This document shows positions 1 through 27,701 of a stretch of DNA of 64,000 nucleotides, piece by piece. Position 1 is the stretch's first letter. Every line of letters starts with the position of its first letter. The stretch is taken from assembly GCF_054482595.1 (NCBI RefSeq), contig NZ_CM137008.1, one strand, 5' to 3'. Under the pieces are notes generated by a model that was not told where the DNA came from, searched no databases, and saw nothing but the letters and a program-made list of their open reading frames with translations. The translations under genes were made by a program, and so were the position numbers.

Positions 1-503
1 CGAAATCACTGAATGCTCTTTGAGTATATCTTCGCTGTCAGGTAACCAATGAACCCGTTCCACATCCCGGGAGCTTCTGGTACTGCGCCGCTTCGTCCGG
101 TGACACAAAGCTCTTACATTGCCCATGGCATCCATAATCAACTGCTCCAGAACAGGGGCATCGAAATACGCCTTTCGGGCACATCACACCACTTTATATT
201 CCGGCATATCAGGAGCATAGTTCCGGGTCAGAAGTACCGGTCATCAGATCGAGCAGGATGTCAGTCAATGCTGCCCCCGGGATTAACTATGCAGAAACAG
301 TCCTGAGACACAGACAAGATCAGAGACGACGCACGCGTGTGGTTGATTGACACCAACGTGCGGGTTCAGCGAATCAGCGATCACGGTGCGATTTCGCGCC
401 ACAGTACACAATCAATAGTAAGCGTAAACTGACCGCCGTATGTAGCCATTAAGCCTGTATTGGTAACGTAGGTGCCCACTTTTTCAACTAGTGGACACCT
501 GTT

Positions 504-710
504 ATGGAACAGAAAATATTATCCGCAGAACCCCGCAGAACATTTTCAAATGAGTTTAAACTTCAAATGGTTAAACTGGCTTCACAACCAGGAGCCTCTG
601 TTGCCCGTATTGCCAGGGAACACGATATCAATGATAATCTTCTGCTCAAATGGCTCTGGCTGATCGGCCTTCCCCCACTTTTTACGCGAGGTGATTATGA
701 AGATCAATGA
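504..710 (+). pseudogene. IS3-family transposase OrfA-like fragment (HTH N-terminus, truncated)
   Basis: 68-aa ORF with the typical IS3/IS911 OrfA N-terminal pattern (RRTFSNEFKLQMVKL...SVARIAREHDINDNLLLKWL); too short for an intact orfA and no orfB follows. Confidence 0.5.
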
Positions 711-908
711 CTAGCCGTCGAACCGTGTGCATGAACTGCTGCACTGAAACTTCTCAGCTGTAAAGTAATCCTTACGCTACGTACTTCTCGGAGCGCTTAC
801 GATTAATCAGATGCAGTCCTGACTGGAAGAAAGAAAAATGGAAAAATAAGAGGAATTAATATATTCCACGTTCCTGAAATCCTGGAGGATATTAATGTCA
901 TCAAAATA

Positions 909-1925
909 TTAGCGAACGATAATCCCTAACAAAATACCCAGTACGCCAAAGTCAGCATCACTGGAGGTGGTGTTAGCAAAACCAATATCATCCAGCACAG
1001 GCAATAAGAATACTGGCGGGAAGGTAATAGGCAAGCCTTGAGCGAAGGCACCCAAAATCGCACCACGACGTCCCCCCGTTGCATTACCGAATACCCCTGC
1101 AGTTGCACCTACGAAGAAGTGCGGCACCATACCAGGAATAATCACGATCATGTTCAGCAGATACAACGTGAACATACCGATTAAACCTGCAGCAAAGCTG
1201 CTCAGGAAACCAACCAGTATAGCGTTAGGTGCGTAAGGGAAGACGACCCGGGAATCGAGAGCTGGTCTGGCATTCGGAACCAGCTTGTCTGAAATACCTT
1301 TGAATGCCGGGACAATCTCCGCAATCACCATGCGCACACCCTGCAGAATGATGTAAACACCTGCTGCGAAGGTAATAGATTGCATGATGGAGAACATGAA
1401 CCAGTTTTTACCACCACTAAGCTCTTTCACCACATCTGCACGCGCAAACAGGCACGTCACCAGGAAAATTATGCTCATGGTAAAAGAGATAGCAACCGGC
1501 GTGTCGCGCAAGAACAGCAGACTTTTCGGCACATTCATGTCTTCAGTCGAGTGGTCTTTATTACCAAACTTGCTGCCGATGAAACCGGCCAATACATAAG
1601 ATAATGTTGAGAAGTGGCCGATGGCAACGTCATCAGAACCGGTCACTTTCTTCATGTACGGATGCGCAATAGCCGGGAAAAAGACCATTGCCACGCCAAC
1701 AACCAAAGAGCCAACGGCTATAAGCGTAATGCCGGTCATGCCTGCTGTTGCCAGAATTACCGCTACCATCATCGACATAAACAACGTGTGATGACCGGTC
1801 AGGAAGATAAATTTCCACGGTGTGAAACGGGCAATCAGAATGTTGATAACCATCAGAAACGCTGGACTATCCCTCGGAAACGTTAGCTGAGATCCGCCAT
1901 ACCGGCGCACGAGCCGGGCTGGCAT
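909..1925 (-). CDS. PTS sugar transporter EIIC, SgaT/UlaA-like; probably N-terminally truncated, ORF start likely spurious
   Basis: 338-aa polytopic membrane ORF with glycine-rich transmembrane segments typical of L-ascorbate-family EIIC; shorter than the usual 420-480 aa; it abuts a truncated epimerase fragment on the opposite strand. Confidence 0.45.
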   Translation of the reverse strand: MPARLVRRYGGSQLTFPRDSPAFLMVINILIARFTPWKFIFLTGHHTLFMSMMVAVILATAGMTGITLIAVGSLVVGVAMVFFPAIAHPYMKKVTGSDDVAIGHFSTLSYVLAGFIGSKFGNKDHSTEDMNVPKSLLFLRDTPVAISFTMSIIFLVTCLFARADVVKELSGGKNWFMFSIMQSITFAAGVYIILQGVRMVIAEIVPAFKGISDKLVPNARPALDSRVVFPYAPNAILVGFLSSFAAGLIGMFTLYLLNMIVIIPGMVPHFFVGATAGVFGNATGGRRGAILGAFAQGLPITFPPVFLLPVLDDIGFANTTSSDADFGVLGILLGIIVR

Positions 1926-1981
1926 TTAATCCGGCGACCCCAATCGACGCCTGGCAATATCTGGCGTCTGAGCTGGACGGC

Positions 1982-2221
1982 GTGATGGTGATGACCTGTG
2001 AGCCCGATGGGCACGGACAGCGGTTTATTCCCTCTATGTGCGAGAAAATCCAAAAAGTACGCACGGCTTTTCCTCAGACCGAGTGCTGGGCCGACGGTGG
2101 AATTACGCTGGCGGCAGCACAGCAACTGGCTGCAGCCGGGGGGCAGCATATGGTGATTGGGCGCGTCTTGTTCTTTTCATCTGACTATCGCGCGACCTTA
2201 GTTCAATTCGCCACCCTGTAA
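1982..2221 (+). pseudogene. sgcE: Ribulose-phosphate 3-epimerase C-terminal fragment (sgcE-like remnant)
   Basis: 79-aa ORF matching the C-terminal part of Rpe-family epimerases (FIPSMCEKIQKVR...DGGI...AAGG...VIGRVLF); lies immediately upstream of sgcR as in the K-12 sgc locus; N-terminal ~2/3 missing. Confidence 0.6.
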
Positions 2222-2237
2222 GAGGAGATTGTTTCTG

Positions 2238-3020
2238 ATGAGCCAACAGAGACCTGACCGTATCAAACAGATGCTGCACTACCTGTGGCAACATCGTCAC
2301 CTCTCCACACAGCAGGCCATGGAGCTTTTTGGCTATGCGGAGGCGACTGTCCGTCGTGATTTTCAGTATATTGCCAACCAGTACCCAGGCATGATCCGCG
2401 GTCACGGTTGTCTCGACTTCGACGACAGTACTGACGACAAAGAGTACGTTTTCGATGTGAAACGTACATTGCAATCTGTGGCGAAGAGAGAAATAGTCGC
2501 CCTTGCCCGAACGATGATCAAAGATGGCGACTGCTTTTTTCTCGACTCCGGCTCAACCTGCCTCGAACTGGCGAAATGCCTGGCCGATGCACGGGTGAAG
2601 GTCTCCTGCAACGACATTAAAATCGCCAATGAGCTGGGCTGTTTTCCCCATGTGGAAAGCTATATTATCGGTGGACTGATTCGCCCGGGGTATTTTTCGG
2701 TAGGAGAGAGTCTGGCGCTGGAGATGATCAATGCCTTTTCCGTAGAACGTGCGTTTATCTCCTGCGATGCGCTGTCGCTGGAGACGGGGATCACCAATGC
2801 CACCATGTTTGAGGTCCGGGTGAAAACACGGATTATTCAACGCTCGCGTGAAGTTATTCTCATGGCCGAACACTCAAAATTTGATGCCGTTGAGCCGCAT
2901 GCTGTAGCAACACTCTCATGTATTAAAACGATCATTAGTGACAGCGGGTTACCTGAGACTATTGCACAGCGTTATCAGCGAGCCGGATGTCAGTTGTTTT
3001 TACCTCATTCAATAAAGTGA
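2238..3020 (+). CDS. sgcR: DeoR-family transcriptional regulator SgcR
   Basis: N-terminal HTH plus DeoR C-terminal sugar-phosphate domain; sequence from MSQQRPDRIKQMLHYLWQHRHLSTQQAMELFGY matches my recollection of K-12 SgcR. Confidence 0.8.
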   Translation: MSQQRPDRIKQMLHYLWQHRHLSTQQAMELFGYAEATVRRDFQYIANQYPGMIRGHGCLDFDDSTDDKEYVFDVKRTLQSVAKREIVALARTMIKDGDCFFLDSGSTCLELAKCLADARVKVSCNDIKIANELGCFPHVESYIIGGLIRPGYFSVGESLALEMINAFSVERAFISCDALSLETGITNATMFEVRVKTRIIQRSREVILMAEHSKFDAVEPHAVATLSCIKTIISDSGLPETIAQRYQRAGCQLFLPHSIK

Positions 3021-3392
3021 TAGGTAAGTTCGTTCGAGAGGGATTTCAAGCAAAAACAATCAATGGCACCCAATAGAAAATATTGGCGATGTGCTCGAAC
3101 GAATAAAGAAGCCCTATGCGCAATCCACACGCTACGATGTTGCAACAACACTCCATCTACTTTTTATTCTCATTCACTAAATGTGGCTGTTCTGGATTCA
3201 TTATTCAAAGTGTGTACAAGATCACATTTAATCACTTCATTACGGTTCAGCATGCTGAACAAAGCATATTTTCCACTATGTAATGCCGATACCATTTATT
3301 CCATGAGCAAGGAGGAGCCATTATGGTTCGCAAAGGGGGTGATGCTGCCAACTTACTGATTTAGTGTATGATGGTGTTTTTGAGGTGCTCCA

Positions 3393-3668
3393 GTGGCTTC
3401 TGTTTCTATCAGCTGTCCCTCCTGTTCAGCTACTGACGGGGTGGTGCGTAACGGCAAAAGCACCGCCGGACATCAGCGCTATCTCTGCTCTCACTGCCGT
3501 AAAACATGGCAACTGCAGTTCACTTACACCGCTTCTCAACCCGGTACGCACCAGAAAATCATTGATATGGCCATGAATGGCGTTGGATGCCGGGCAACAG
3601 CCCGCATTATGGGCGTTGGCCTCAACACGATTTTACGTCACTTAAAAAACTCAGGCCGCAGTCGGTAA
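3393..3668 (+). CDS. insA: IS1 InsA
   Basis: 91-aa product [43 protein letters not shown]... is the canonical IS1 InsA. Confidence 0.95.
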
Positions 3669-4090
3669 CCTCGCGCATACAACCGGGCAGTGACGTCATC
3701 GTCTGCGCGGAAATGGACGAACAGTGGGGCTATGTCGGGGCTAAATCGCGCCAGCGCTGGCTGTTTTACGCGTATGACAGGCTCCGGAAGACGGTTGTTG
3801 CGCACGTATTCGGTGAACGCACTATGGCGACGCTGGGGCGTCTTATGAGGCTGCTGTCACCCTTTGACGTGGTGATATGGATGACGGATGGCTGGCCGCT
3901 GTATGAATCCCGCCTGAAGGGAAAGCTGCACGTAATCAGCAAGCGATATACGCAGCGAATTGAGCGGCATAACCTGAATCTGAGGCAGCACCTGGCACGG
4001 CTGGGACGGAAGTCGCTGTCGTTCTCAAAATCGGTGGAGCTGCATGACAAAGTCATCGGGCATTATCTGAACATAAAACACTATCAATAA
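3587..4090 (+). CDS. insB: IS1 InsB (normally expressed as InsAB' by -1 frameshift)
   Basis: 167-aa product ...[72 protein letters not shown] is canonical IS1 InsB. Confidence 0.9.
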
Positions 4091-4322
4091 GTTGGAGTCA
4101 TTACCGAATCAACCTATGGTGCGGTATGTTTAAGTATGCCGGTATTCAATATGTATAACAGAGTTAACTATGCAATCTCACTTTCTGGCGATCCGGTAAT
4201 TTATTCAGGAAATAAGATAGACAGCTATCTGGAGTTGCTCCGGAAATGCACAGGGCAAATATCATATGGGCTGGGATACAGAAACGAAAATGAACATTTA
4301 CGAAAAGGAAACTGAGGTAATG

Positions 4323-5225
4323 AAAAAATTCAGCGGCATTATTCCACCGGTATCCAGCACGTTTCATCGTGACGGAACCCTTGATAAAAAGGCAATGCGC
4401 GAAGTTGCCGACTTCCTGATTAATAAAGGGGTTGACGGGCTGTTTTATCTGGGTACCGGTGGTGAATTTAGCCAGATGAATACAGCCCAGCGCATGGCGC
4501 TCGCCGAAGAAGCTGTAACCATTGTCGACGGGCGAGTGCCGGTATTGATTGGCATCGGTTCCCCTTCCACTGACGAAGCGGTCAAACTGGCGCAGCATGC
4601 GCAAGCCTGCGGCGCTGATGGTATCGTCGCCATCAACCCCTACTACTGGAAAGTTGCGGCGCGGAATCTTGACGACTACTACCAGCAGATCGCCCGCAGC
4701 GTCACACTGCCGGTGATCCTGTACAACTTTCCGGATCTAACCGGTCAGGACTTAACCCCGGAGACCGTGAAACGTCTGGCACTGCAAAATGAAAATATCG
4801 TCGGCATCAAAGACACCATCGACAGCGTCGGCCATCTGCGCACGATGATCAACACCGTTAAGTCTGTACGTCCGTCATTTTCGGTATTCTGCGGCTTCGA
4901 CGACCATTTACTGAATACCCTGCTGCTGGGCGGCGATGGCGCGATATCCGCCAGCGCTAATTTTGCTCCGGAACTCTCTGTCGGTATCTACCGCGCCTGG
5001 CGCGAGGGCGATCTGGCAACTGCCGCCACCCTGAATAAAAAGCTCCTGCAACTGCCCGCGATTTACGGCCTTGAAACGCCGTTTGTCTCACTGATCAAAT
5101 ACAGCATGCAGTGCGTGGGGTTGCCGGTGGAGACATATTGCCTGCCGCCGATTCTTGACGTCTCAGAAGAAGCCAAAGAAAAAGTCCACGCACTGCTGGC
5201 CGCGCAGGGCATTTTATCGGACTGA
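4323..5225 (+). CDS. yjhH: 2-dehydro-3-deoxy-D-pentonate aldolase (DapA/NAL family), YjhH/YagE-like
   Basis: DapA-family TIM barrel; from MKKFSGIIPPVSSTFHRDGTLDKKAMREV it is near-identical to my recollection of E. coli YjhH; directly followed by the yjhG-like dehydratase. Confidence 0.85.
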   Translation, partial: KKFSGIIPPVSSTFHRDGTLDKKAMREVADFLINKGVDGLFYLGTGGEFSQMNTAQRMALAEEAVTIVDGRVPVLIGIGSPSTDEAVKLAQHAQACGADGIVAINPYYWKVAARNLDDYYQQIARSVTLPVILYNFPDLTGQDLTPETVKRLALQNENIVGIKDTIDSVGHLRTMINTVKSVRPSFSVFCGFDDHLLNTLLLGGDGAISASANFAPELSVGIYRAWREGDLATAATLNKKLLQLPAIYGLETPFVSLIKYSMQCVGLPVETYCLPPILDVSEEAKEKVHALLAAQGILSD

Positions 5226-5235
5226 GGAGAAGATC

Positions 5236-7203
5236 ATGTCTGTTCGCCATATTTTTGCTGACGAAAGTCGCGATATCTACACCGTCAGAACCCACGCCGA
5301 TGGCCCTGACGGAGAACTGCCGCTTACGGCGGAAATGCTCATCAACCGCCCGAGCGGGGATCTGTTCGGGATGACCATGAATGCCGGAATGGGCTGGTCC
5401 CCAGACGAACTGGATCGGGACGGTATTCTACTGCTCAGCACGCTGGGAGGGTTACGCGGGGCAGACGGTAAGCCCATCGCGCTGGCGCTGCACCAGGGTC
5501 ACTACGAGCTGGATATCCAGATGAAAGCGGCCGCGGAGGTCATCAAAGCGAACCGTGTCCTGCCCTATGCCGTGTATGTTTCCGATCCGTGCGACGGACG
5601 AACTCAGGGTACGACGGGTATGTTTGACTCGCTACCGTACCGTAATGACGCCGCCATGGTGATGCGTCGTCTAATCCGCTCTCTGCCCGATGCGAAAGCC
5701 GTCATTGGCGTGGCGAGCTGCGACAAGGGACTTCCGGCCACCATGATGGCACTTGCCGCGCAGCATGACAAAGCGACGGTGCTGGTGCCCGGTGGCGCGA
5801 CGCTACCCGCAAGGGATGGGGAGGATAACGGCAAGGTGCAGACCATCGGCGCCCGCTTCGCCAATGGCGAGTTATCGCTACAGGATGCCCGCCGTGCGGG
5901 TTGTAAAGCCTGCGCCTCCTCCGGCGGCGGCTGTCAATTTCTGGGCACCGCCGGGACATCGCAGGTCGTAGCCGAAGGATTAGGACTGGCCATCCCGCAC
6001 TCAGCACTGGCCCCTTCCGGCGAACCGGTGTGGCAGGAGATAGCCAGAGCCTCCGCGAAGGCGGCGTTGAACTTATGTAAACAAGGCATCACCACCCGGG
6101 AAATACTCACCGATAAAGCGATTGAGAATGCGATGACGGTCCATGCGGCGTTCGGTGGTTCAACAAATCTGTTGCTGCATATTCCGGCGATTGCCCATCA
6201 GGCCGGCTGCCATATTCCAACCGTTGACGACTGGATCCGCATCAACAAGCGGGTGCCCCGACTGGTAAGCGTACTCCCCAATGGTCCGGTTTATCACCCG
6301 ACAGTGAATGCCTTCATGGCGGGAGGTGTGCCGGAGGTGATGCTGCATCTTCGTAGTCTGGGATTGCTGCATGAAGACGTGATGACGGTCACCGGCAGCA
6401 CGCTGAAAGAAAACCTGGACTGGTGGGAGCATTCCGAACGGCGTCAGCGGTTCAAACAGCTTCTGCGCGAACAGGAGCAGATCGATGCCGACGAGGTGAT
6501 CATGTCGCCACAGCGGGCACGGGAGCGCGGCCTGACCTCAACGATCACTTTCCCGGTGGGCAATATTGCCCCGGAAGGGTCGGTTATCAAATCCACCGCC
6601 ATCGATCCCTCGGTGATTGATGATCGGGGCATCTATTACCATAAAGGCGTGGCGAAGGTTTATCTGTCCGAGAAAAGCGCGATTTACGATATCAAGCACG
6701 AGAAGATTAAAGCGGGCGATATTCTGGTCATCATCGGCGTTGGCCCTTCCGGCACCGGGATGGAGGAAACCTACCAGGTCACCAGCGCCCTGAAACATCT
6801 GTCCTATGGCAAGCATGTTTCACTGATCACCGATGCGCGTTTCTCGGGTGTTTCCACGGGAGCCTGTATCGGCCACACAGGGCCAGAAGCACTGGCCGGA
6901 GGGCCAATCGGTAAATTACGCACCGGAGATATTATTGAAATTAAAATTGATTGTCGCGAGCTTCAGGGCGAAGTCAATTTCCTCGGAACCCGTAACGATG
7001 AAACATTACCCTCACGGGAGGAGGCCACCGCAATATTAAACGCCCGACCCAGTCATCAGGATTTACTTCCTGATCCTGAGCTGCCCGATGACACCCGACT
7101 CTGGGCGATGCTCCAGGCGGTAAGCGGCGGGACATGGACGGGTTGTATTTATGATGTAAATAAAATCGGCGCGGCCTTGCGCGATTATATGAATAAGAAC
7201 TGA
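5236..7203 (+). CDS. yjhG: D-xylonate dehydratase (IlvD/EDD family), YjhG/YagF-like
   Basis: IlvD/EDD-family protein starting MSVRHIFADESRDIYTVRTHADGPDGELPL, with CDGRTQG and SCDKG motifs; near-identical to remembered YjhG. Confidence 0.85.
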   Translation: MSVRHIFADESRDIYTVRTHADGPDGELPLTAEMLINRPSGDLFGMTMNAGMGWSPDELDRDGILLLSTLGGLRGADGKPIALALHQGHYELDIQMKAAAEVIKANRVLPYAVYVSDPCDGRTQGTTGMFDSLPYRNDAAMVMRRLIRSLPDAKAVIGVASCDKGLPATMMALAAQHDKATVLVPGGATLPARDGEDNGKVQTIGARFANGELSLQDARRAGCKACASSGGGCQFLGTAGTSQVVAEGLGLAIPHSALAPSGEPVWQEIARASAKAALNLCKQGITTREILTDKAIENAMTVHAAFGGSTNLLLHIPAIAHQAGCHIPTVDDWIRINKRVPRLVSVLPNGPVYHPTVNAFMAGGVPEVMLHLRSLGLLHEDVMTVTGSTLKENLDWWEHSERRQRFKQLLREQEQIDADEVIMSPQRARERGLTSTITFPVGNIAPEGSVIKSTAIDPSVIDDRGIYYHKGVAKVYLSEKSAIYDIKHEKIKAGDILVIIGVGPSGTGMEETYQVTSALKHLSYGKHVSLITDARFSGVSTGACIGHTGPEALAGGPIGKLRTGDIIEIKIDCRELQGEVNFLGTRNDETLPSREEATAILNARPSHQDLLPDPELPDDTRLWAMLQAVSGGTWTGCIYDVNKIGAALRDYMNKN

Positions 7204-7309
7204 AAGCAAAAATAAAAACATCCAGACACCTGAATTATCCGGTTACGCATTATTCATCCTGTGCGCAGCCGGATAATGACGGGTCGTTACCCTATGATGA
7301 GAGGACGTT

Positions 7310-8659
7310 ATGCCACTAATTATCGTTGTGGCAGGGATTGCTTTACTCCTGCTTTTAACCATAAAAATTAAGCTTAATACGTTTGTTTCGTTAATTATTG
7401 TCTCGATTGCTGTCGCCATCGCCAGTGGTATGGATTTGAGTAAAGTCGTCACCTCAGTCGAATCCGGACTTGGCGGTACGCTGGGCCATATTGGTTTGAT
7501 ATTTGGGTTCGGTGTTATGCTCGGTCGCTTGCTGGCCGATGCGGGGGGGGCGCAGCGAATAGCGCTGACCATGCTGAATTATTTCGGGAAAAATAAACTT
7601 GACTGGGCAGTGGTCTGTTCGGCGTTTATTGTCGGTATCGCACTTTTTTTCGAAGTCGGTTTAATTCTTCTGGTACCTATTTTATTCGCTATTGCCCGTG
7701 AAGCAAAAATATCACCGATGTTTATGTGTGTGCCGATGCTTTCCGGTTTGCTGGTCGCACACGGTTTTTTGCCGCCGCACCCCGGCCCGACAGTAATCGC
7801 CAGAGAATATGGTGCTGATGTAGGATTGGTACTGATATACGGTATCATTGTCGGCATTCCAACCTTTATTCTTTGCGGCCCGGTATTGAATAAATTCTGC
7901 CAGCGCATTATTCCGGAAGCCTTTAAAAAAGAGGGGAATATAGCCTCTCTCGGCGCGACCCGCCGGTTCAGCGAAAGCGAAATGCCTGGCTTTGGGATCA
8001 GTTTTCTCACGGCAATGCTGCCGGTGATCCTGATGGCGGTTGTCACCATCATCCAGATGACTCATGCCAAAAGTGCCGCGGATTCAGGCTTATTCTACAA
8101 CGTGCTACTGTTCTTAGGTAATTCGACGATCGCCATGCTGATTTCACTGCTGTTCGCGATCTATACCATGGGCCTGGGGCGCGGGAAAACAATCCCTGAC
8201 CTGATGGATTCTTGCGGAAAAGCTATCGCGGGTATTGCCGGTCTGCTGCTGATTATCGGTGGTGGTGGTGCATTCAAGCAAGTTCTCATCGACTCTGGCG
8301 TTGGTCAGTATATTTCCACCCTGGTTTCGGGTATGGATATTAACCCGATCCTGATGGCCTGGGGCGTGGCCGCATTCCTGCGTATTTGTCTGGGTTCAGC
8401 CACCGTCGCGGCGATCTCTACCGCCGGTCTGGTCATCCCATTGTTGGCAGTACATCCCAATACCAACCTGGCCTTGATTACGCTGGCTACCGGTGCCGGA
8501 TCCTGTATTTGTTCTCACGTTAACGATGCCAGTTTCTGGATGATTAAAGACTTTTTTGGCCTGACCACCAAAGAAACGCTGTTATCCTGGACGCTGATGT
8601 CCACACTCTTATCCATCAGTGGGCTGATTTTTATTCTGCTCGCCAGCTTAGTTTTATAA
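7310..8659 (+). CDS. yjhF: GntP-family permease (sugar-acid:H+ symporter), YjhF-like
   Basis: 449-aa polytopic membrane protein of the GntP type; position downstream of yjhG matches the K-12 yjhF arrangement. Confidence 0.8.
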
Positions 8660-9005
8660 TCGGGTTCTTGCCAGTGAGCCAACCTGTTGTTCACTGTCCC
8701 CCATAATTTAGTGAGTGACGGCAACCGTCTGCACGGTGACGAATCGCTGGCGATCAAAAAGGGGCGATATTGAACCGTCGATTATGCTTGTTGAGTGTAC
8801 TCTCAGTAATACTGTAAAGCCGGAGCATGTCTCCGGCTTTACAGTATGGGGGAACAGCGGGAGATCGCTCAAATGGTATGCTGGTTTATTTCATGTAAAA
8901 GAATAAAATATCTGTATAAAATCATGCCACTGGCAATCTGCATCAACTCTCCGGGTAAACAGGGTTAAGATGAGCATTTCCCCGGTTTAATACAGGTATA
9001 CAAAA

Positions 9006-9992: not shown

Positions 9993-10004
9993 AAGAATGA
10001 ACAA

Positions 10005-10028: not shown

Positions 10029-10032
10029 GATT

Positions 10033-12928: not shown

Positions 12929-12937
12929 AATGACCTC

Positions 12938-16690: not shown

Positions 16691-16742
16691 ACACCAATTA
16701 GGTAAAGTTATTTTTAAGTAATCGAGCAACTTGATCCTACCC

Positions 16743-19435: not shown

Positions 19436-20685
19436 TTTTGTACCTCAGGGACACTTAGCTCAACCATTTCCAGCAGCATTTCACTGGCAAGACGCAGGGA
19501 TTCCACAGGCAAAAACTCTCTGGTTGAGTGAAAATTGTGCGCCCCTGTAAATATATTAATAGTAGGCAGCCCTTTTGGGGTGATGACGCTACCATCATAA
19601 CCACCGCGCATAATCAGTGGTTTTGGTGTAATGCCAAGGTTACGCATTGCCTTTCTAACGTTATCTAAGATTGCAGGTGTTTTATCAAGCGCTGGTTTGA
19701 CATTTTCATATATATCGGTTAACACTAATGTTATTCTTTCACTCTTCCAGCGCTGATTAATACTCTTAACAATGTTCTCGAGTACGGCTTTACGTTGTTT
19801 ATATCCTGTTAACTCAAAGTCCCGAATAGCAATATCAAGCGTGGCGCTGGCTGTATCACCATGGAGATTATGGACCCAATAATATCCTTCCCGTTTTTCA
19901 GTATGCTCAGGCCTTTCTTTTTCAGGTAATGCGGCGATAATTTCCGTTGCTATACACAACGCATTAACAAGCTTACCTTTAGCACTCATTGGATGTGCTG
20001 TAACACCACGAACTGTAATTCGTGCACTACCTGCATACCAGTTTTCAACAACATATTCTCCAATCTCACAACAGTCGAGACAGATACCAAAATCAGAATT
20101 CAGTTCACCAACATCAAGCGCTTTTGCCCCTCTGATACCGGTCTCCTCATCAGGCAAAAGAACAAGACGAATATCACCATGAGAAAAGGAGGGTGTATTA
20201 ATCATATATTTGAGAGCTTCAACACCTGCTGCAATGGCAGCTTTGTCGTCAGCCCCCAGCAAGCTGGTGCCATCAGTTACAATAATATCCTGACCGATAT
20301 AGTTGAGTAGTTCTGGATTATCCTGTGGGGATAGTTTTTCCACACTCCCTGCAAACGGTATAGCACCTCCGTTATACTTTTTCACTCGGAAAGCATGTGT
20401 ATCTGTACTGTGGTCCGGAGCTGTATCAAGGTGTGCAAAGAATACGATAGAAGGTGCATCAGGAATATTAGCGGGTAAATGAATTGTGGCAATAGCATTT
20501 TCTTTTATGCTTGTTTGTACCTCTGGAACATCAGAAAATTGATTTACAACATATTCTGCCAGTTTATATTGATTTTTACAGCTTGGAAGCTCCTTGCTAC
20601 CATCAACCGATGTCGTATTTATTTTTGTGTAATATAAAAAAGTCTCAATTATTTTCTCTAAGTCAATGCGTTTTTTCATGATCAT
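19432..20685 (-). CDS. M20-family metallopeptidase, peptidase T (tripeptidase)-like
   Basis: 417-aa protein with M20 metal-binding and catalytic motifs (FFAHLDTAPD, LGADDKAAIAAGVEAL, LLPDEETG); low GC. Confidence 0.75.
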   Translation of the reverse strand: MIMKKRIDLEKIIETFLYYTKINTTSVDGSKELPSCKNQYKLAEYVVNQFSDVPEVQTSIKENAIATIHLPANIPDAPSIVFFAHLDTAPDHSTDTHAFRVKKYNGGAIPFAGSVEKLSPQDNPELLNYIGQDIIVTDGTSLLGADDKAAIAAGVEALKYMINTPSFSHGDIRLVLLPDEETGIRGAKALDVGELNSDFGICLDCCEIGEYVVENWYAGSARITVRGVTAHPMSAKGKLVNALCIATEIIAALPEKERPEHTEKREGYYWVHNLHGDTASATLDIAIRDFELTGYKQRKAVLENIVKSINQRWKSERITLVLTDIYENVKPALDKTPAILDNVRKAMRNLGITPKPLIMRGGYDGSVITPKGLPTINIFTGAHNFHSTREFLPVESLRLASEMLLEMVELSVPEVQK

Positions 20686-20889
20686 ATACCTAATTGTTTA
20701 CTATCAATATCCTGACTATCTATATTTAGATAATATCCTGCAAAAATTAGTGAGTATAGAAAAGGTCGTCAGTTCCTGACTGGTAAATGTCCCTTCGAGA
20801 TTTATTAGAGTCATAATTTGCCTCATCCCAATACAAAAAACAATACGAAAGTATGAAAAAGTGTAGTGATCAACAAAATATTGCCACGT

Positions 20890-20967
20890 TTGTTTCGGTG
20901 TTATTGGAGAGGTTTTTGGTGTTTTGTCCTTACGAGCATCACGCAGTTGTTTGCCCCATCTTGTCAT
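20890..20967 (-). pseudogene. IS911-like OrfA fragment
   Basis: Translation [26 protein letters not shown] matches the central region of IS911-type OrfA; the rest of the ORF is not transposase-like. Confidence 0.45.
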
Positions 20968-21120
20968 CGTGGAAAGGCGACATCAATAGCTTGGTGTAAC
21001 TCTGGTCAACAACCAGTTGCACGGAGTTGCATATGAATTCAGGAGCTTTTCACTGGTGCACCTATATTGGCATATCTGAACCGCCCCGGAAATCCTGGAG
21101 ACTAAACTCTCTGAGAAAGA

Positions 21121-21189
21121 GGCAAACAGGATGACTAAAAAAACACGTTTTTCCCCCGAAGTCCGTCAACGGGCAGTTCAATGCTTTGT
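21121..21189 (+). pseudogene. IS629/IS3411-like OrfA N-terminal fragment
   Basis: MTKKTRFSPEVRQRAVQCFVE followed by a stop; resembles the IS629-type OrfA N-terminus MTKNTRFSPEVRQRAV. Confidence 0.45.
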
Positions 21190-21602
21190 CGAATAAACAT
21201 TTACCTGAACGATTAACTGCAACGGCTATCCTTACCGACAATCAACGTCAATAAAAATCTGTACTGACTCGTCAGCACTGGGTTCGATCAGTAGGAACAT
21301 GAATTCAAAGGCCTCCTTGCTGAATCTCAAGACTCCTCCGATTCCAAAGATAAACCCCGTCTTAAGTTCGCTGGCCTGAAATTCGGTGACTATTGTCTAT
21401 ATCGGGATCACCACGGTTGTGTGATTAATCATCGTCGATCATAAAGCGTCTATGGATGTACTGCGGCGTTCCTGCTACTGGTGATCACCCTGTGGTTGTG
21501 CAATTCCAAACGGATGAAGCGAGAGTAACAGACATCACGCCGCAATCGGGGGCGGCGTGTAGACGTGGTTAATTACTATCAAATATATTAATCAGGCCGA
21601 TT

Positions 21603-23054
21603 CTATTTGCTTTCATTTATGGTTTCCATCATGAGCTGTTGCTGCTTTTCTTTGGACAGTCGAGCGATACCAAAGCCTGTGAACCCCCACAGCGTCGCAA
21701 AGAAAATGCCACTCCAGCAGAGAATAGCCCACGGAAGATAGCTTAATGTAGCAACGCCAAGTGTACCTGCCATGTAGGCACCCGCGGCAGTCCAGGGCAG
21801 AATTGGTTCAAATATGGTGGCAGAGTCTTCTACAGTCCTTGCCAGATTTTTTGGATGTAGGCCGCGCTCAATATAAGCACTTCGTAGCATTTCAATCGGA
21901 ATCAGGATTGATATCTGACCATTACAGGTCACGCTAATCATTGTTAAACCACAGGCAATAGTCGCAAGAATCATGGTTCCTGTGGAATGAACTAATTTGA
22001 GCAGATTATGGACGATGACTTCTAAAGCGCCGCTCAAGGCTAATGTTCCTGCAAATGAAAGGGCGCAGAAACAAATAAGCAACGTACTCATCATCGAGTT
22101 CATGCCACCGCGGTTTAACAAATTACCTAATAGCGGATTAACATCTTTATCGGTAAGCATTGAAACGTTAAATCCGTCTACTGCACTTTTAACAATGTCG
22201 TGTAGTGCGAACCCCTGAATAACGCTGGCGTTGATCATGGCTACCAGTGCCGAAACAAGCATAATTGGAATGGTTGGTTTCTTGGTAATCGAACCGTACA
22301 GGACAATGGCAATGGGTAGCAATAACAATAAATTAAAATGATAAATTCCTTTTAATCCTTCAGTGATTAGCTGAATTTTTTCGGGAATGGTTGAGCCGCC
22401 GAGCTCGCCATTCATCCCATAGAGCGTCATAACAAAGGCTGACAGTATCAATGAAGGAAGGGTTGTATAAAGTAAATGAGCGATGTGTTCATAGAGATCT
22501 ATCTGGGCTGCCATTGCGGCTAAGTTAGTATCACCAGAAAGGGGAGACAGTTTGTCCCCGAAGTAAGCCCCTGCCACAATAGCGCCTGCAGTTGCTGCCA
22601 GATTAGCCTCCATTCCGATAGCCACACCCATAAACGCAACACCGACGGTGCCTGCGGATCCCCAGGATGTCCCTGTGCATACAGAAACGACGGCAGTAAC
22701 GAGCAGGGCCGTCACATAGATCATGGAAGGATTTATCAGAATAAGGCCGTAATAAATCATCAGCGGAATAGTACCGCCTATCATCCATGTCCCAATCAGG
22801 AGGCCCACGCTGATCAAAATTAGCAGAGCAGGCATTGTTTTAGCGATTTTCTGCGATATTGATTCAAGGATTGCATTGTAGCCATACCCCAACCGCTTAA
22901 CTAACAGTGCAGCAATGACGGTTGAAAGAACCATTAATGGCTCAGGTGGCAGATCGAATGCCGCATAACCAAATCCCAGCAATAGTATCATCGCTAGTAT
23001 TGGTAATAATGATTCCACCAGAGTTGGGGATCTTGGAGTATTGTTATTATTCAT
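21603..23054 (-). CDS. NhaC-family Na+/H+ antiporter-type transporter (possible amino-acid or organic-acid carrier)
   Basis: ~480-aa polytopic membrane protein with NhaC-like topology; likely start MNNNNTPRSP at 23054, immediately after the stop of the upstream C-S lyase; low GC. Confidence 0.7.
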   Translation of the reverse strand: MNNNNTPRSPTLVESLLPILAMILLLGFGYAAFDLPPEPLMVLSTVIAALLVKRLGYGYNAILESISQKIAKTMPALLILISVGLLIGTWMIGGTIPLMIYYGLILINPSMIYVTALLVTAVVSVCTGTSWGSAGTVGVAFMGVAIGMEANLAATAGAIVAGAYFGDKLSPLSGDTNLAAMAAQIDLYEHIAHLLYTTLPSLILSAFVMTLYGMNGELGGSTIPEKIQLITEGLKGIYHFNLLLLLPIAIVLYGSITKKPTIPIMLVSALVAMINASVIQGFALHDIVKSAVDGFNVSMLTDKDVNPLLGNLLNRGGMNSMMSTLLICFCALSFAGTLALSGALEVIVHNLLKLVHSTGTMILATIACGLTMISVTCNGQISILIPIEMLRSAYIERGLHPKNLARTVEDSATIFEPILPWTAAGAYMAGTLGVATLSYLPWAILCWSGIFFATLWGFTGFGIARLSKEKQQQLMMETINESK

Positions 23055-24225
23055 GAAGGGAAACTCCTGTAGTGAAGGGGATGCTCTGATAAATCCGTTC
23101 AAATGCTTGTGTAAGATTGCTTCTCGGCGTGGCTATGTTCACACGGAAAAAACCAAGTCCTTCATCGCCAAAATCTGATCCCCAGCTCATCTCAACACCT
23201 GCGAGCGAGACAAACCAATGGCGTAGTTGCTCTTCGCTGATGTTCATTGCCCGGTAGTCGATCCACAACATGTAAGTTCCGCCACCAGAGGCGACAAACC
23301 AGTCTGGAAAATGAGCTTGGCAGAATGATTGAACCCAGCTCCTGTTTTCGACCAAATAATCTTTTAATGCTGCTAACCAAGAATCGCCATGGCGGTAAGC
23401 ACAGAGAAATGCAGGAACAGAGAAATAACCAGGATTATGGATACCTGCTGCAATAAGAGCTAATTTAAACTGTTCACGATATTTATCGTTAGCAATAACA
23501 ATATTTGCGATTTCAAGTCCGGCCATATTAAAAGTTTTTGCTGGAGATGTACAAATAAACGAGTTTTGTGCAACGTATGAGCTTATAGAAGAAATTGTTT
23601 GATGTTGTTTTTGGGTGAAGTTGAAGTCTGCATGAACATCATCAGAAATAATAAAAACATTATATTTTTCTGCTAATGAAGCTATTTTCCTTAGATTGTC
23701 TTCTGACCAGATTGTTCCTGTTGGATTATGCGGCGATATTAGAATGAAACAACAAGCCATTTTAAACTTATCTTCGAGATCCGCAAAGTCTATTTCATAG
23801 TGGTGGTCACGATAAAGTAACGCACTTTCCAGCAATACTCGATGGTTGACTTCAACTGCATGACTAATAGGATGATAGGCTGGTGCCAGGCTGACAATAG
23901 CATCTCCCGGTTGGGTAAAGTTCTGGATAAATAATGAGACGGCCTGTACTACCCGTGGGCAAAAAACAATGTGTTCAGGGTTGACCTTCCACGAGTAATG
24001 GCGTTGATACCACTGTGCTGCCACTTGCTGCCAGTCATCACTTAATAATGTATAACCGTAGATACCTTTCTGATTTGCGACAGATAATTCAGAAACTATA
24101 AAATCAGCTACAGGAATATCCATATCAGCTACAGACAGGGGAATGATGTCACGCCCCTTGTTATTATATTTAGCGCTATAGGTTCCGTCGCGTGAAATAA
24201 CTTTATCAAAATTATAAACTTTCAT
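23047..24225 (-). CDS. PLP-dependent aminotransferase class I/II enzyme, PatB/MalY-type cysteine-S-conjugate / cystathionine beta-lyase
   Basis: Likely start MKVYNFDKVISRDGTYSAKYN; typical MalY/PatB features (SVADMDIP, aminotransferase fold); first gene of a low-GC minus-strand cluster. Confidence 0.75.
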   Translation of the reverse strand: MKVYNFDKVISRDGTYSAKYNNKGRDIIPLSVADMDIPVADFIVSELSVANQKGIYGYTLLSDDWQQVAAQWYQRHYSWKVNPEHIVFCPRVVQAVSLFIQNFTQPGDAIVSLAPAYHPISHAVEVNHRVLLESALLYRDHHYEIDFADLEDKFKMACCFILISPHNPTGTIWSEDNLRKIASLAEKYNVFIISDDVHADFNFTQKQHQTISSISSYVAQNSFICTSPAKTFNMAGLEIANIVIANDKYREQFKLALIAAGIHNPGYFSVPAFLCAYRHGDSWLAALKDYLVENRSWVQSFCQAHFPDWFVASGGGTYMLWIDYRAMNISEEQLRHWFVSLAGVEMSWGSDFGDEGLGFFRVNIATPRSNLTQAFERIYQSIPFTTGVSLHE

Positions 24226-24657
24226 ATTTGTTACTCGCCCGGTTTTATCGTTAGGGTAATGTAATATTTCGAGGGAGGAAGTGTTATTCTGTATTTTGTT
24301 TTCGTTATTATGAAAATTTGCATATGTGATGTTTATCACAAAGATGTTAACTATCTGTCAATAAAAAGACTCCAGCAAATGTAAACGTTTTACATCGCTT
24401 AAGCCTATGGAATTTACATAAAAAAAGGGCGTGCCGAGTCTTTCGACCCAATCATTATCTCGGTAACTCCATTCACAAGAGCAGGAAATAACCTCTTCAA
24501 CAAATAACAGACTGATGCCTGCGAGCGCGCTCCCCAGGTTTCCGGGCTGAAAGTACCGCCGCACTCGTTTAACGCGGAACAGTCTGTGTTGGCGGTTTAA
24601 TGGTGGATGTTGCTGTAGACCACAACTGATGAGGCAACGGAGTTTACCGTGATGATT

Positions 24658-25839
24658 CCTATTTATCATTTTCTGGTCAGTGCCGCGATTCTGGTATTCA
24701 TGGTGATTTTCTGTCAGACACGCCATCGCGACCACCGTAACTGGCTGGCTCTGCTGCTATTCGTATTATGATCTGTAAACAGCTGGCCATTGCGGATGGT
24801 TAAAGGAACAATTGTGGGGACAACTGACACATTGCGTAAAATGCAGCGTTATGAACAACTGAGTCAGCACGGGGCTGACAGCTGGAAAATCCTGCTGGGA
24901 GCACCGTTATATGACACGATTGTTATTGTCACTAGTGAGAGTGTGCGCAGGAATTATATGACAGCGTATGGCTATCCCGTATCAACCACACCGTGGCTGA
25001 ATATGGCACCCGGTTTATTTATTGACGGTTATAACTCGACAGCCTCCAGTACTGTGCCTTCCCTGAGCCGGACACTGATTTATGACTATGAGCAGCCCCC
25101 TGATTCCGACAACAACGTGGTGGCGCTGGCAGCAAAAGCAGGATACAGCACATAGTGGATATCCAATCAGGGAAAACTGGGGGAGTATGACACACGCATC
25201 TCTGTTATTGCTTCTGATGCGGAGCATACCGCTTTCCTCAAGAAAGGCAGCTTCGCTTCCCGTAAAACAGATGACAAACTGTTGTTACAGGAAACAGAAC
25301 GTGCGCTGGCGGATACATCCTCTCCGAAGATAATTTTCCTGCACATGATGGGTTCTCATCCAAATCCGTGTGACAGCCTTAACTCCTGGCCGAATAATTA
25401 CCTGGAGCAGTATCCCCGAAAAATTGCCTGTTACCTCGCCAGCATCAGTAAACTGGATAACTTTCTTGGCCAGCTTGATGGTATCCTTCGCCGGTACTCA
25501 CGTCATTTCGCCATGCTTTACTTTTCTGGCCTTGGGCTGTCGGTCAGCGACAGTGCTAATCCTGTTCATCATGATGGTCATGTGCAGGGGGGCTACAGCG
25601 TTCCCCTGATTATTACCGCCAGTGACATCACGTCTCATCAGTCCGTCAGCAGGAAAATCAATGCCCGTAATTTCGCAGGCATTTTTCAGTGGCTGACCGG
25701 TATTCGTACCGAAAATATAACGCCATTCAATCCGCTGACAGACGAAGATAATGAACCCGTTATGGTTTTTAACGGAGAGAAAAATGTGCCGGCAGACAGT
25801 CTGAAACCGCAGCCACTTATTCTTCCGGACCACAGGTAA
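24658..25839 (+). pseudogene. Phosphoethanolamine transferase (sulfatase-family, EptA/YhbX-like) pseudogene, truncated and frameshifted
   Basis: Two adjacent ORFs in different frames (24790-25155 and 25282-25839) carry sulfatase-domain motifs (YGYPVSTTPWLN; IIFLHMMGSHPNP); a short transmembrane peptide is encoded just upstream; the N-terminal membrane domain is missing. Confidence 0.55.
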
Positions 25840-26162
25840 TCATATATGGCAAACTGTAATACAGTCTCTTGTACTGAAAAGGATTCTGTATAGAATAGAA
25901 CCTGTATTCATATCAGCACAAGGGACCACCAAATCCCGGCAACATTCCTTACGTCAGTTATCCCGCATCACCCTGTGGGTGCGGGATTTTTTATGATGTT
26001 TCTTTTTATTGAATATATATAAATAACGAATAACTGCGGATTCTGATAATCCACCTGCAGGGAGCAATCCGGTAAACATTTAATACATCAGTTAATATCG
26101 TTTTGCCTTTTTAACAAAGAAAATATTCATGGAGTAAGTTCCCGGGCATTTGCCCGGGATGA

Positions 26163-27428
26163 TTACTGTTTTAATGGATTATTAATCTTTGCATATTCAA
26201 ATGGACTGATAAATTTTTCTCTGTTTGCATCCAGAAAATCGGCCCACCATTGTAGCATCAAGCGGCGTTCTTCCAGATGCTCTGCTTTATGAATGTAAGC
26301 AGCACGTACACCGTTACGTTCCTGATGGCTCATCTGACGTTCCACAGCATCGCGGGACCACAAACCTGATTCAATCAATGCACTGCACGCCATCGCCCGG
26401 AATCCATGGCCACAGACTTCCTGGGTTGTGTCATACCCCATCACCCTCAGGGCTTTATTTACAGTATTTTCACTGATTGGTTTACGCGGGTCATGTGCAC
26501 CCGTAAATATCAGACCATTTTCACCTGCCCATGTCTGAAGTTCTGTCAGTATGGCTACAGCCTGTTTGCTGAGTGGCACAAGATGTGGTGTTCGCATCTT
26601 GGAGCCCCGGTGTGAGAATTTTACGCCTGGCAGAGGTTCGCGTTCGGCTGGAATAGTCCACTTGGCATTGTCAATATCAATTTCAGACCAGCGGGCATAT
26701 CTGAGTTCACTGGAACGAATAAAAACCAGTAAATTCAGCATAACTGCCAGTCGGGTGACAGGCTGGCCTTTATAACCGTCAATACGCGACAGAAGTTCAG
26801 GCAAGCGTGAAAGATCCAGAGCAGGGCGATGCTGGCGTTTTACCGTGGTCAATGCACCAGCCATATCCAGAGCCGGGTTATATCTGATGATGCCTGACTG
26901 TACGGCATAACGCATTACAGCAGATATTCTTTGCTGCAGACGACTGGCGATTTCATAAATTTGTTTTGCTTCTGCAGCACGAACAGGGATAAGCAGATCC
27001 GGGGTATTGAGTGTTGTGATATCCCGGTTGCCGATAAAGGGGAAAACGTGTGTCTCGAGGCTTTTGAGTACTTTATCGCTGTGTGATTGTGCCCATTGTT
27101 TATTACTGGCATGCCAGCGTCGTGCAATATGTTCAAAAGAGAGCTGTAAATCAGGGACAACTTTTTTAACTCTTTTCTGTTCGCAAGGGTCAATCCCTTC
27201 TGAAATCAGTTTTCGGGCCTCATCCCGTTTTGTACGAGCTTCGGAGAGAGAAACTTCTGGATACACACCAAGTGCCAGAGTCTTCTCCTTACCCAGAATA
27301 CGATAACGGAGACGCCAGTAACGGGAACCATTAGGATGAACCAGCAGGAACATGCCGGCCCCGTCAGTGAGTTTATAAGCCTTGTCAGTGGGCTTTGCAG
27401 CCCGGATTTTTGCGTCAGTCAGTGCCAT
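26163..27428 (-). CDS. int: Tyrosine site-specific integrase, P4-type (island integrase)
   Basis: 421-aa protein with the P4-integrase N-terminus MALTDAKIRAAKPTDKAYKLTDGAGMFLLVHPNGSRYWRLRY and the C-terminal catalytic domain; lies ~200 bp from the 3' end of tRNA-Phe. Confidence 0.95.
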   Translation of the reverse strand: MALTDAKIRAAKPTDKAYKLTDGAGMFLLVHPNGSRYWRLRYRILGKEKTLALGVYPEVSLSEARTKRDEARKLISEGIDPCEQKRVKKVVPDLQLSFEHIARRWHASNKQWAQSHSDKVLKSLETHVFPFIGNRDITTLNTPDLLIPVRAAEAKQIYEIASRLQQRISAVMRYAVQSGIIRYNPALDMAGALTTVKRQHRPALDLSRLPELLSRIDGYKGQPVTRLAVMLNLLVFIRSSELRYARWSEIDIDNAKWTIPAEREPLPGVKFSHRGSKMRTPHLVPLSKQAVAILTELQTWAGENGLIFTGAHDPRKPISENTVNKALRVMGYDTTQEVCGHGFRAMACSALIESGLWSRDAVERQMSHQERNGVRAAYIHKAEHLEERRLMLQWWADFLDANREKFISPFEYAKINNPLKQ

Positions 27429-27625
27429 AGTTCAGCCTTCTGAATGCGTTAAAGAGGGTACAAATTCTGTCGAACTGGGGTATACCCGCAATTATACCCA
27501 CACAATGAGGTTGATGTGGGGGGAATCTGGTTGAGTTCGGTAGAATTGATTTGGAGGCAGAACGCTTAAATTGTGGCGTTCTGAAACGAAAAACGGACCT
27601 CCGTGGAGGTCCGTTGATATGAATT

Positions 27626-27701
27626 TGGTGCCCGGACTCGGAATCGAACCAAGGACACGGGGATTTTCAATCCCCTGCTCTACCGACTGAGCTATCCGGG
27701 C
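27626..27701 (-). tRNA. pheV: tRNA-Phe (GAA)
   Basis: Reverse complement reads GCCCGGATAGCTCAGTCGGTAGAGCAGGGGATTGAAAATCCCCGTGTCCTTGGTTCGATTCCGAGTCCGGGCACCA, which is E. coli tRNA-Phe with CCA end. Confidence 0.97.

Follow-up and report, generated by a model that had tools for sequence, protein, structure and literature searches.

A mosaic genomic island at the 3' end of a tRNA-Phe gene with a P4-family integrase

The window analysed here, a stretch of 64,000 nucleotides from contig NZ_CM137008.1 (NCBI RefSeq assembly GCF_054482595.1), raises the question of what occupies the DNA to the left of a tRNA-Phe gene at which similarity to K-12-type genomes stops, and how it came to lie there. The initial annotation had read this DNA as a mosaic genomic island at the 3' end of the tRNA gene, and that interpretation is supported in every element. 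Positions 1..27625 are very probably the integrase-proximal third of a horizontally acquired E. coli island of ~81 kb, of the well-known GI-pheV/GI-pheU class. The discrete 81-kb unit is known from other genomes, because the far end and its repeat lie outside the window. Table 1 collects the features.

Table 1. Features of the island and its tRNA junction, in window coordinates
Feature	Position	Strand	Remark
Hypothetical pseudogene	up to 234		Island runs on leftwards past the window start
Transposase fragment	504..653
PTS IIC gene, UlaA/SgaT-type	909..1859	-	5'-truncated
sgcE 3' fragment	1853..2221	+
sgcR	2238..3020	+
First 15 nt of yjhI	within the 1853..3337 block	+
IS1	3338..4105	+	768 bp, both ends intact
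yjhI 3' remnant	4106-4315	+
yjhH	4320..5225	+
yjhG	5236..7203	+	D-xylonate dehydratase
yjhF	7310..8659	+	GntP-family permease
yjhU/mtnR	9006..9992	+	Convergent with the DHAP-shunt operon (PMC12632272)
DHAP-shunt operon	10033..14197	-	Function from PMC10986504, PMC12632272
GRP-family transporter	10033..11037	-
Class II aldolase ald2	11141..11782	-	361 bits, above cut-off
mtnA	11813..12928	-	463 bits, above cut-off
mtnK	12938..14197	-	521 bits, above cut-off
TnpB/InsQ pseudogene remnant	14641..15159	+	Block GC 0.39
OmpC-family porin gene, extra	15396..16508	+
ISEc16, IS3 family	16722..17975 (about)	-
MFS transporter and peptidase T paralogue	18245..20685	-	GC 0.395; rare in E. coli
IS911/IS3-family fragments	20889-21025, 21077-21179
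psiE pseudogene	21395-21528
NhaC-family antiporter	21603..23054	-
PatB/MalY-type C-S lyase	23047..24225	-
Phosphoethanolamine transferase (ept) pseudogene, yjgX-like	24619..25839	+	94% to the KpLE2 copy beside intB
Recombination patch, 660 bp	25557..26219		~70 mismatches plus gaps against the SM107/Santai/4FM allele; identical to GTEN_97
P4-family tyrosine integrase (intP4 type)	26163..27428	-	Intact, 421 aa
Terminator-like hairpin with T-run	27592..27615	-	Island-supplied; 10 nt past the tRNA 3' end
Minimal repeat, last 19 nt of tRNA-Phe	27626-27644		As in tandem arrays
att core, last 23 nt of the tRNA	27626..27648	-	TTCGATTCCGAGTCCGGGCACCA
tRNA-Phe(GAA), intact	27626..27701	-	ARAGORN and Rfam both
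tRNA and 18 bp upstream	27626..27719		94 bp identical between the pheU and pheV loci

In genome alignments, homology of the window to K-12-type genomes begins at 27626, exactly the tRNA 3' end, and extends only rightwards, so the claim that core synteny (yqgA, speC, nupG and onward) ends at this tRNA holds to the nucleotide. K-12 itself has an empty site here. The tRNA can be assigned to pheV by context because the right flank, yqgA-speC-nupG-mltC onward, matches complete genomes, several of them at 100% identity. Searches of the window with the 23-mer and the 19-mer at up to three mismatches found no second att copy beyond the tRNA itself; with a single copy and no internal island boundary, the distal end must lie beyond the window start, where the initial annotation had placed it. 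Rfam at gathering thresholds returned nothing in the window except the tRNA, and therefore no known sRNA or TnpB-associated RNA.

The P4-family integrase that had been reported downstream of the tRNA is confirmed: the gene is intact, lies 197 bp from the tRNA 3' end, encodes the three P4-type Pfam domains (Arm-DNA-bind_3, Phage_int_M and Phage_integrase), and is matched by phage P4 Int at 55.4% identity over 97% of its length. Its 3' part has 78% DNA identity to intB of the K-12 element KpLE2. The integrase alone is a common feature: at pheV, one of the intP4 type is present in ~55% of genomes. Some copies of it are frameshifted, as in strain SM107, and parts of the island family are therefore decaying. 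The 660-bp patch alters Int residues 404-406, and a search for its source among all fetched loci found none closer than 94.5%.

By the behaviour of its family, this integrase would recombine the element with the last 19-23 nt of the tRNA-Phe gene; the tRNA would be restored intact, and part of its end would be duplicated as a direct repeat on the far side of the element. The element could occupy either pheU or pheV, the two genes being identical. We infer both an active integrase and movement of the element as a unit by site-specific recombination.

The island is rare, and its relatives define its extent. In a collection of 5,426 complete E. coli genomes, which does not include the window's own, at least 80% of window positions 1-25000 is present in only nine, and the modules at 18245-24225 are likewise held by only nine genomes. 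In these relatives the island is a discrete unit of ~81 kb between 22-23-bp repeats of the tRNA end, usually at pheU and once at pheV; the tRNA flank is of the pheU type (dicD) in five of the nine. SM107 has the clean arrangement dicD-pheU-island-repeat-cadC: starting at pheU, the island extends over 81,185 bp and closes with an exact 23-bp repeat, which is the 23-nt att sequence put forward in the initial annotation; past it come the remnant of an integrase and cadC. The islands of 4FM and GTEN_97 are homologous to that of SM107 up to the same far-end repeat, present there in a 22-bp variant with a 1-nt deletion, beyond which 4FM has a second integrase and island and GTEN_97 has kps. The island of 4FM, a complete genome, adjoins yqgA within a tandem array at pheV (yqgA-pheV-island-22-bp repeat-second integrase-second island). 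Santai and LR14 also have tandem arrays, behind a 19-bp att copy, which in Santai is a partial copy between two islands. In GTEN_97 the island is bordered by the pheU flank (dicD) at its tRNA end and by kps at its far end, and a plain pheU location was rejected for this genome on account of kps. In AHM21C2872I, ISEc16 is the point at which the pheV island passes into the distal part of this one, and marks the breakpoint of an inter-island rearrangement in that strain. Occupancy of pheV is itself variable: the K-12 site is empty, and SM107 and Santai, whose core is exactly the window's, have a different island there. Copies of the island are at least 99.97% identical even where the core beside them diverges by 0.75-1.8% from host to host, and the island appears to have spread recently among these diverged hosts.

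A P4-family integrase at a tRNA-Phe gene could also belong to an integrative conjugative element (ICE) or to a satellite prophage of the P4 kind, and both pheU and pheV are recognised hotspots for ICEs and phages (PMC11537424), but this reading is very improbable. Like P4, the element has the P4 integrase architecture and a tRNA 3'-end integration with tRNA regeneration; unlike it, an 11.6-kb replicon that targets leuX, the window holds no other P4 gene. The integrase alone matches P4; genes for P4 replication, capsid size or helper exploitation (alpha, sid, delta, psu, cos) are annotated neither in the window nor in the 81 kb of the relatives, and by annotation both also lack a relaxase and type IV secretion genes. 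Transfer genes of any kind are unannotated in the whole 81 kb of the relatives, no excisionase was seen within the window, and the distal part of the relatives resembles CP4-44/57 rather than a transfer module. That the region is ancestral E. coli DNA beside a decayed, unrelated integrase remnant has a negligible probability, for although intP4-type integrases stand at pheV in about half of genomes, the cargo is confined to nine of them instead of being present at pheV in all E. coli, and the integrase is intact and accompanies the cargo, between att repeats, at two different loci and in diverged hosts.

The relatives also give a view of what lies outside the window span. Their distal part is a CP4-44/57-like module (CbtA/CbeA, RadC, antirestriction, Ag43), which includes the Ag43 adhesin, and they have a gene labelled 'enterotoxin' in some records and 'alpha-galactosidase' in another. 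An AlpA-like gene occurs nearby as a fragment only, just left of the window start.

Within the window, the island is a genomic mosaic whose blocks are of differing origin and are joined at IS elements and IS scars. Block GC ranges from 0.39 to 0.53, with an island mean of 0.473 against 0.515 in the core flank, and cumulative GC skew, which the initial annotation had proposed to plot, is flat across the island and rises steadily across the core. The block-wise composition and its division by IS1, an IS3-like element, a TnpB remnant and smaller IS fragments are thus as first described. The IS1 has no target duplication, replaces 564 bp of yjhI, and occurs at this position in no record of the searched genome collection, being specific to the window's genome.

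The cargo seen here is predicted to be metabolic, with D-xylonate catabolism (yjhHGF) and a DHAP shunt for 5'-deoxynucleosides with its repressor MtnR/YjhU. The predicted shunt genes form a complete set: all four operon genes and the convergent yjhU/mtnR are present, in the same gene order as in the published cluster (PMC12632272). The semi-palindrome reported over the P1 promoter of that cluster is absent in its exact form upstream of mtnK in the window. Further cargo consists of the OmpC-type porin, the MFS-PepT and NhaC-PatB pairs, the latter block (21603..24225) with a GC of 0.43 and rare in E. coli, and several gene remnants. No recognised virulence determinants were found in the window, which holds only metabolic, transport and porin genes. 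An sgc module had also been claimed; its sgcE 3' fragment and sgcR stand, but the truncated IIC gene is of the UlaA type, and its candidacy as sgcC was rejected for want of significant similarity to K-12 SgcC.

How the island came to pheV in this genome is a separate question. Compared with SM107, the window is a clean hybrid: up to 27625 its sequence is that of the pheU island, from 27720 onwards that of the pheV flank, and the change-over lies within the intervening 94 bp, in which the two tRNA loci do not differ. It was rejected as a simple recombinant of the SM107 pheU island with a pheV flank, because the patch at 25557-26219 is of the GTEN_97 type, and at least one further event is therefore needed.

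The account that we favour, tentatively, is that a copy of the element, horizontally acquired or excised from pheU, integrated site-specifically into pheV, where it may stand in tandem before a resident raffinose-type pheV island. Exactly such an outcome is seen in 4FM, with the island at pheV followed by a repeat, a second integrase and a second island, and the integrase reading frame of the window is intact. The patch, of the GTEN_97 type and not that of the same-core strains SM107 and Santai, speaks against the mere flipping of a pheU island like that of SM107, but it could also have come by gene conversion after an inversion. The far junction of the putative integration lies outside the window, and excisionase and transfer functions were not identified.

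A serious possibility as well is that a chromosomal segment containing oriC was inverted, its ends lying in the two tRNA-Phe genes, which are inverted relative to each other, and that a pheU island was thereby placed beside the pheV flank. Such an exchange could have occurred by homologous recombination in the 94-bp identity or by Int-mediated recombination of att with att. It would account for a perfect hybrid relative to the identical-core SM107 across the 94 bp common to both loci, and inter-island rearrangements recur in the lineage, as in AHM21C2872I, joined at ISEc16, and in GTEN_97, with kps on one side and dicD on the other. However, RecA would have only 94 bp to work with, which is short, an extra event is needed to explain why the patch differs from that of SM107 and Santai, and the reciprocal junction is not observable.

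Either relocation, by integration or by pheU/pheV inversion, is likelier than a mis-join. An assembly chimera through the 94-bp pheU/pheV repeat would place the switch point exactly where it lies, within the only sequence common to both loci, and the searched collection contains no record of this island at pheV beside this core. It is nonetheless improbable: the same island truly adjoins yqgA in the complete genome 4FM, assemblers as a rule stop at repeats of this kind instead of joining across them wrongly, typical reads are longer than 94 bp, and the private IS1 insertion marks the window as coming from an independent genome, not from a reshuffling of a known one.

Islands at tRNA-Phe genes with P4-type integrases are a textbook class and rank with the most thoroughly studied hotspots of plasticity in the E. 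coli genome, and the island described here matches published GI-pheV biology, in which content is modular, intP4 is the only conserved gene and the repeats are of 23 or 19 bp (Nhu et al., PLoS Genet 2024, PMC11537424). It shares with GI-pheV the position at the 3' end of pheV, an intP4-type integrase as first gene, modular and highly variable content and, in the relatives that carry the same island, repeats that agree with the published attR forms of 23 or 19 bp, including the variant TTCGATTCCGAGTCCGG-CACCA, and a size in the 50-110 kb range found when attR is present. It differs in the purely metabolic cargo of the window, without pap, hly, sat, iuc or LEE genes, and in the pheU-type flank of five of the nine other carriers; exchange between pheU and pheV is not treated in that study. 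The OI-122 and LEE islands (PMC3893438) are likewise found at either of the identical tRNA-Phe genes, pheU or pheV by lineage, but are virulence islands, in contrast to the metabolic or fitness island here. The finding thus serves mainly as correct annotation. Nevertheless, diverged hosts carry this one 81-kb element in near-identical form at pheU, at pheV or in tandem arrays, which makes it a clear case and a convenient natural system for non-conjugative island movement. For the typing of pheV and pheU islands, it means that content and flank can uncouple, by relocation or by inversions between the loci. It is possible, if somewhat doubtful, that the 81-kb element is now mobile as a unit without transfer genes of its own and has entered at least four E. 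coli lineages, both tRNA-Phe genes and tandem arrays so recently that only a few SNPs have arisen since, bringing the DHAP-shunt operon to non-ExPEC backgrounds; at its att sites, which lie in inverted tRNA-Phe genes, the integrase may also drive megabase inversions around oriC.

The modules in common with the leuX/KpLE2 island, noted in the initial annotation, prove more extensive than was seen then, and include the ept pseudogene, the DHAP-shunt operon and, more distantly, the integrase. K-12 KpLE2 is 96% identical to window positions 1854-3343, 93% identical to 4106-10090 and 94% identical across the ept/yjgX pseudogene (24653-25923). In strains other than K-12, leuX islands also carry mtnK-mtnA-aldolase-transporter and are collinear with 4106-14646 at 94.4%. 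In total ~13 kb (sgcE'-sgcR, yjhIHGF, yjhU/mtnR and the DHAP-shunt operon) resembles leuX islands at 93-96% identity, and about half of the cargo is a paralogue of the leuX island. With KpLE2 and the GI-leuX islands of K-12 and ExPEC it shares sgcE-sgcR-yjhIHGF-yjhU, the DHAP-shunt genes, the yjgX-like ept pseudogene beside the integrase, and the gene order relative to the tRNA, but the sgcXBCQA genes are absent from the window. The island was rejected as KpLE2 itself: its target is tRNA-Phe rather than leuX, its integrase is only ~78% identical to intB over part of the DNA, although the two share cargo. The one mildly new point concerns the DHAP-shunt operon, described in the literature as invariably leuX-linked and here found outside the leuX island. 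The operon, which serves growth on 5'-deoxynucleosides, is thus carried by a tRNA-Phe island too, and there as a distinct allele group, with alleles at least 99% identical among the tRNA-Phe copies and at most 97.3% identical to all others.

The tRNA-Phe gene, identified as pheV because of its yqgA-speC-nupG core flank, forms the exact boundary of the core, as the initial annotation had proposed: homology to genomes with an empty site (K-12 W3110, J53) begins at 27626, the 3′ end of the tRNA. To its right, nucleotides 27702-64000 are 100% identical to several complete E. coli chromosomes, SM107 and Santai among them. To its left, the integrase shares 55.4% identity with phage P4 Int across 97% of its length and contains the domains Arm-DNA-bind_3, Phage_int_M and Phage_integrase, which bears out its assignment to the P4 family; an integrase of this type lies at pheV in ~55% of genomes (2,970 of 5,426 complete genomes, counted as those covering at least 80% of window 25001-34000). 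The spacer between the two genes holds a terminator-like hairpin, and the terminator of the tRNA comes from the island, not from the core. SM107 has a near-identical copy of this hairpin after the attachment (att) repeat at the far end of its element, beside an integrase remnant.

Features of the island and its junction with the core (from RefSeq annotation of identical DNA and NCBIfam scans)
Feature	Position	Strand	Remarks
Pseudogene and transposase fragments	up to 908		
UlaA-type PTS IIC gene	909-1859		5′-truncated
sgcE′, sgcR	1853-3020		
IS1	3338-4105		in place of 564 bp of yjhI
yjhI′, yjhH, yjhG, yjhF	4106-8659		
yjhU (= MtnR)	9006-9992		
DHAP-shunt operon	10033-14197		mtnK, mtnA, ald2, GRP transporter
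TnpB pseudogene	14641-15159		
OmpC-family porin	15396-16508		intact, extra copy; 532 bits to OmpC subfamily model
ISEc16	about 16722-17975		
MFS transporter, PepT paralogue	18245-20685		GC 0.395
IS3-family scraps, psiE remnant	20889-21528		
NhaC, PatB-type C-S lyase	21603-24225		GC 0.43
ept pseudogene	24619-25839		
Integrase	26163-27428	-	intact 421-aa ORF, 197-bp spacer from tRNA
Terminator-like hairpin	27592-27615	-	10-bp stem and T-run, 10 nt past tRNA 3′ end
tRNA-Phe(GAA)	27626-27701	-	ARAGORN, sole tRNA in window; Rfam concurs
Core flank	right of tRNA		yqgA, speC, nupG, mltC, yggX, mutY and further core genes

The cargo is accessory and its composition changes block by block, both as first described: window 1-25000 is nearly complete in only 9 of the 5,426 genomes, and GC content ranges from 0.39 to 0.53 between blocks, with an island mean of 0.473 against 0.515 in the core flank. 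Cumulative GC skew is flat across the island and rises steadily across the core. The low-GC MFS-PepT and NhaC-PatB modules (18245-24225) occur in only nine complete E. coli genomes and probably originate outside Escherichia. The initial annotation was accurate except on what the IIC fragment is: it is not sgcC, to whose K-12 product it has no significant similarity. No target duplication was found around IS1; its insertion and the adjacent yjhI deletion occur in none of the 5,426 genomes and are private to the window's genome, so the source strain lies outside that collection. The porin gene, in a low-GC block between the TnpB remnant and ISEc16, could encode an alternative porin or a variant phage receptor.

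The window start cuts the island, and its distal att repeat is observed in relatives only. In SM107 the element runs for 81,185 bp from pheU (flank dicD-dsbD-cutA-dcuA) to a 23-bp repeat that reproduces the 3′ end of the tRNA exactly, beyond which lie an integrase remnant and then cadC. Its distal 54 kb in relatives carry IS66 remnants, an amidohydrolase/dcuC/LysR module, malX with a malY-like gene, a citrate-lyase and acnB-like cluster, and a CP4-like module with Ag43 and CbtA/CbeA. Beside malX and the malY-like gene is WP_040235199.1 (8602-10491 in L002, a GTEN_97 locus; 39674-41563 in comparison locus L003), which three records name ‘enterotoxin’ and one other ‘alpha-galactosidase’; the former label is probably an annotation artefact. 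SM107 homology in 4FM and GTEN_97 ends at the same repeat in a 22-bp form, TTCGATTCCGAGTCCGG-CACCA, a common GI-pheV attR (PMC11537424), followed in 4FM by a second, frameshifted integrase and a defence-gene island, and in GTEN_97 by an IS110 scrap and a kps/kfi capsule locus. In Santai (L001, 39407-39425) and LR14, only the final 19 nt of tRNA-Phe separate the integrase end from ParDE and the DUF4942 far end of a further CP4-like island; the islands thus stand in tandem array. The tRNA-side flank is of pheU type (dicD) in SM107, FXCREC035, FXCREC004, CDE2901 and GTEN_97, of pheV type (yqgA) in 4FM and the window, and truncated or rearranged at IS3 copies in Rb-50 and AHM21C2872I. Host core flanks diverge by 0.75-1.8%, whereas identity among the island copies, one short patch aside, is at least 99.97%; we conclude that the element is a unit delimited by att sites, has recently spread between lineages and can occupy either tRNA-Phe gene.

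That patch, 660 bp long and sharply bounded (25557-26219), differs by ~70 mismatches plus gaps between two sets of copies that otherwise agree: the window and GTEN_97, whose islands are one SNP apart, on one side, and SM107, Santai and 4FM on the other. It takes in the ept pseudogene's 3′ end, the intervening spacer and the final ~19 codons of int, altering Int residues 404-406 (EKF vs YIY), and looks like a gene-conversion tract; no donor was found among the loci compared, where the best match was CDE2901 at 94.5%.

SM107 and Santai, with core 100% identical to the window's, have a different island at pheV, in which a 394-aa integrase (43% identical to the window's) comes first, with genes of raffinose/sucrose type and a type I restriction-modification system behind it. 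Followed base by base, the window equals the pheU island of SM107 as far as 27625 and, from 27720, the pheV flank of that genome; over the intervening 94 bp, made up of the tRNA and 18 bp more, the two loci do not differ. We tentatively favour site-specific integration of an element copy at pheV, at a little under an even chance: the hybrid junction is compatible with it, 4FM has the same outcome, and the 660-bp patch is mild evidence that an SM107-like chromosome has not simply flipped. Inversion between the two tRNA-Phe genes, which lie inverted to each other, is nearly as likely, since that patch tells only against its simplest form, the shared 94 bp would permit it, and inter-island rearrangements are frequent in the lineage. 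AHM21C2872I (NZ_CP104629.1 2908500-2958400), which shares the core, has a frameshifted ISEc16 at which its resident pheV island, with a 394-aa integrase, raffinose genes, type I restriction-modification and thymidylate synthase, meets the distal portion of the window's island, up to 17975 (98.7% identical over 4106-17975). This junction implies that the pheV and pheU islands underwent an exchange or an inversion mediated by IS3; NB4833 and SCEC020001 show the same match pattern. In GTEN_97 (NZ_CP113493.1 823000-921900) the far att repeat is closely followed by the K5 capsule genes (kfiC, kfiD, kps), and the tRNA end has the pheU flank (dicD-dsbD-cutA-dcuA); the combination suggests a pheV/pheU inversion. 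An assembly mis-join, with which a switch inside 94 identical base pairs is also compatible, is improbable.

Every defining feature of GI-pheV/GI-pheU-type islands testable within the window was found there. The mosaic tRNA-Phe island first proposed was correctly interpreted, and it is an ordinary new element of a class already known for its modular make-up and exchange of modules, for intP4 and for repeats of 19 and 23 bp (PMC11537424). OI-122 and LEE are likewise islands found at either pheU or pheV (PMC3893438). On the window's evidence it is not a pathogenicity island; nor is it an ICE or a P4 satellite, as annotation shows neither transfer genes nor P4 genes, or KpLE2, from which it differs in tRNA and integrase. 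[quoted passage not shown]

The modules that the initial annotation linked to K-12 KpLE2 do match it, at 96.0% identity over 1854-3343 and 93.3% over 4106-10090, where the match stops at K-12's IS1F. Window 24653-25923 (93.9%) corresponds to the yjgX pseudogene beside intB, and 25918-26733 (78%) to the 3′ part of intB. In a fuller leuX island (e.g. WP4-W18-ESBL-08) the yjhI-to-mtnK block is collinear with 4106-14646 (94.4%), and the leuX island has the same order relative to the tRNA: cargo, ept fragment, int, tRNA. The DHAP-shunt module is present in 1,596 of 5,426 genomes, but the window's allele (≥99%) in only 13 records, a single copy each, with every other at ≤97.3%. The operon is stated to sit ‘invariably’ at the leuX-island end (PMC10986504, PMC12632272), so its occurrence at tRNA-Phe is a minor exception. 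Experiments have identified YjhU as MtnR, which represses this neighbouring operon, and a semi-palindrome over the P1 -10 element was put forward as its possible site (PMC12632272). This putative site reads CAAAT-8 nt-ATTTG in a leuX-island copy and CAAAT-8 nt-ACATG upstream of mtnK in the window (14198-14330), both changes falling in the right half; with ~20 substitutions in 140 bp of the mtnK promoter region relative to the leuX version, regulation of the window's allele may differ.
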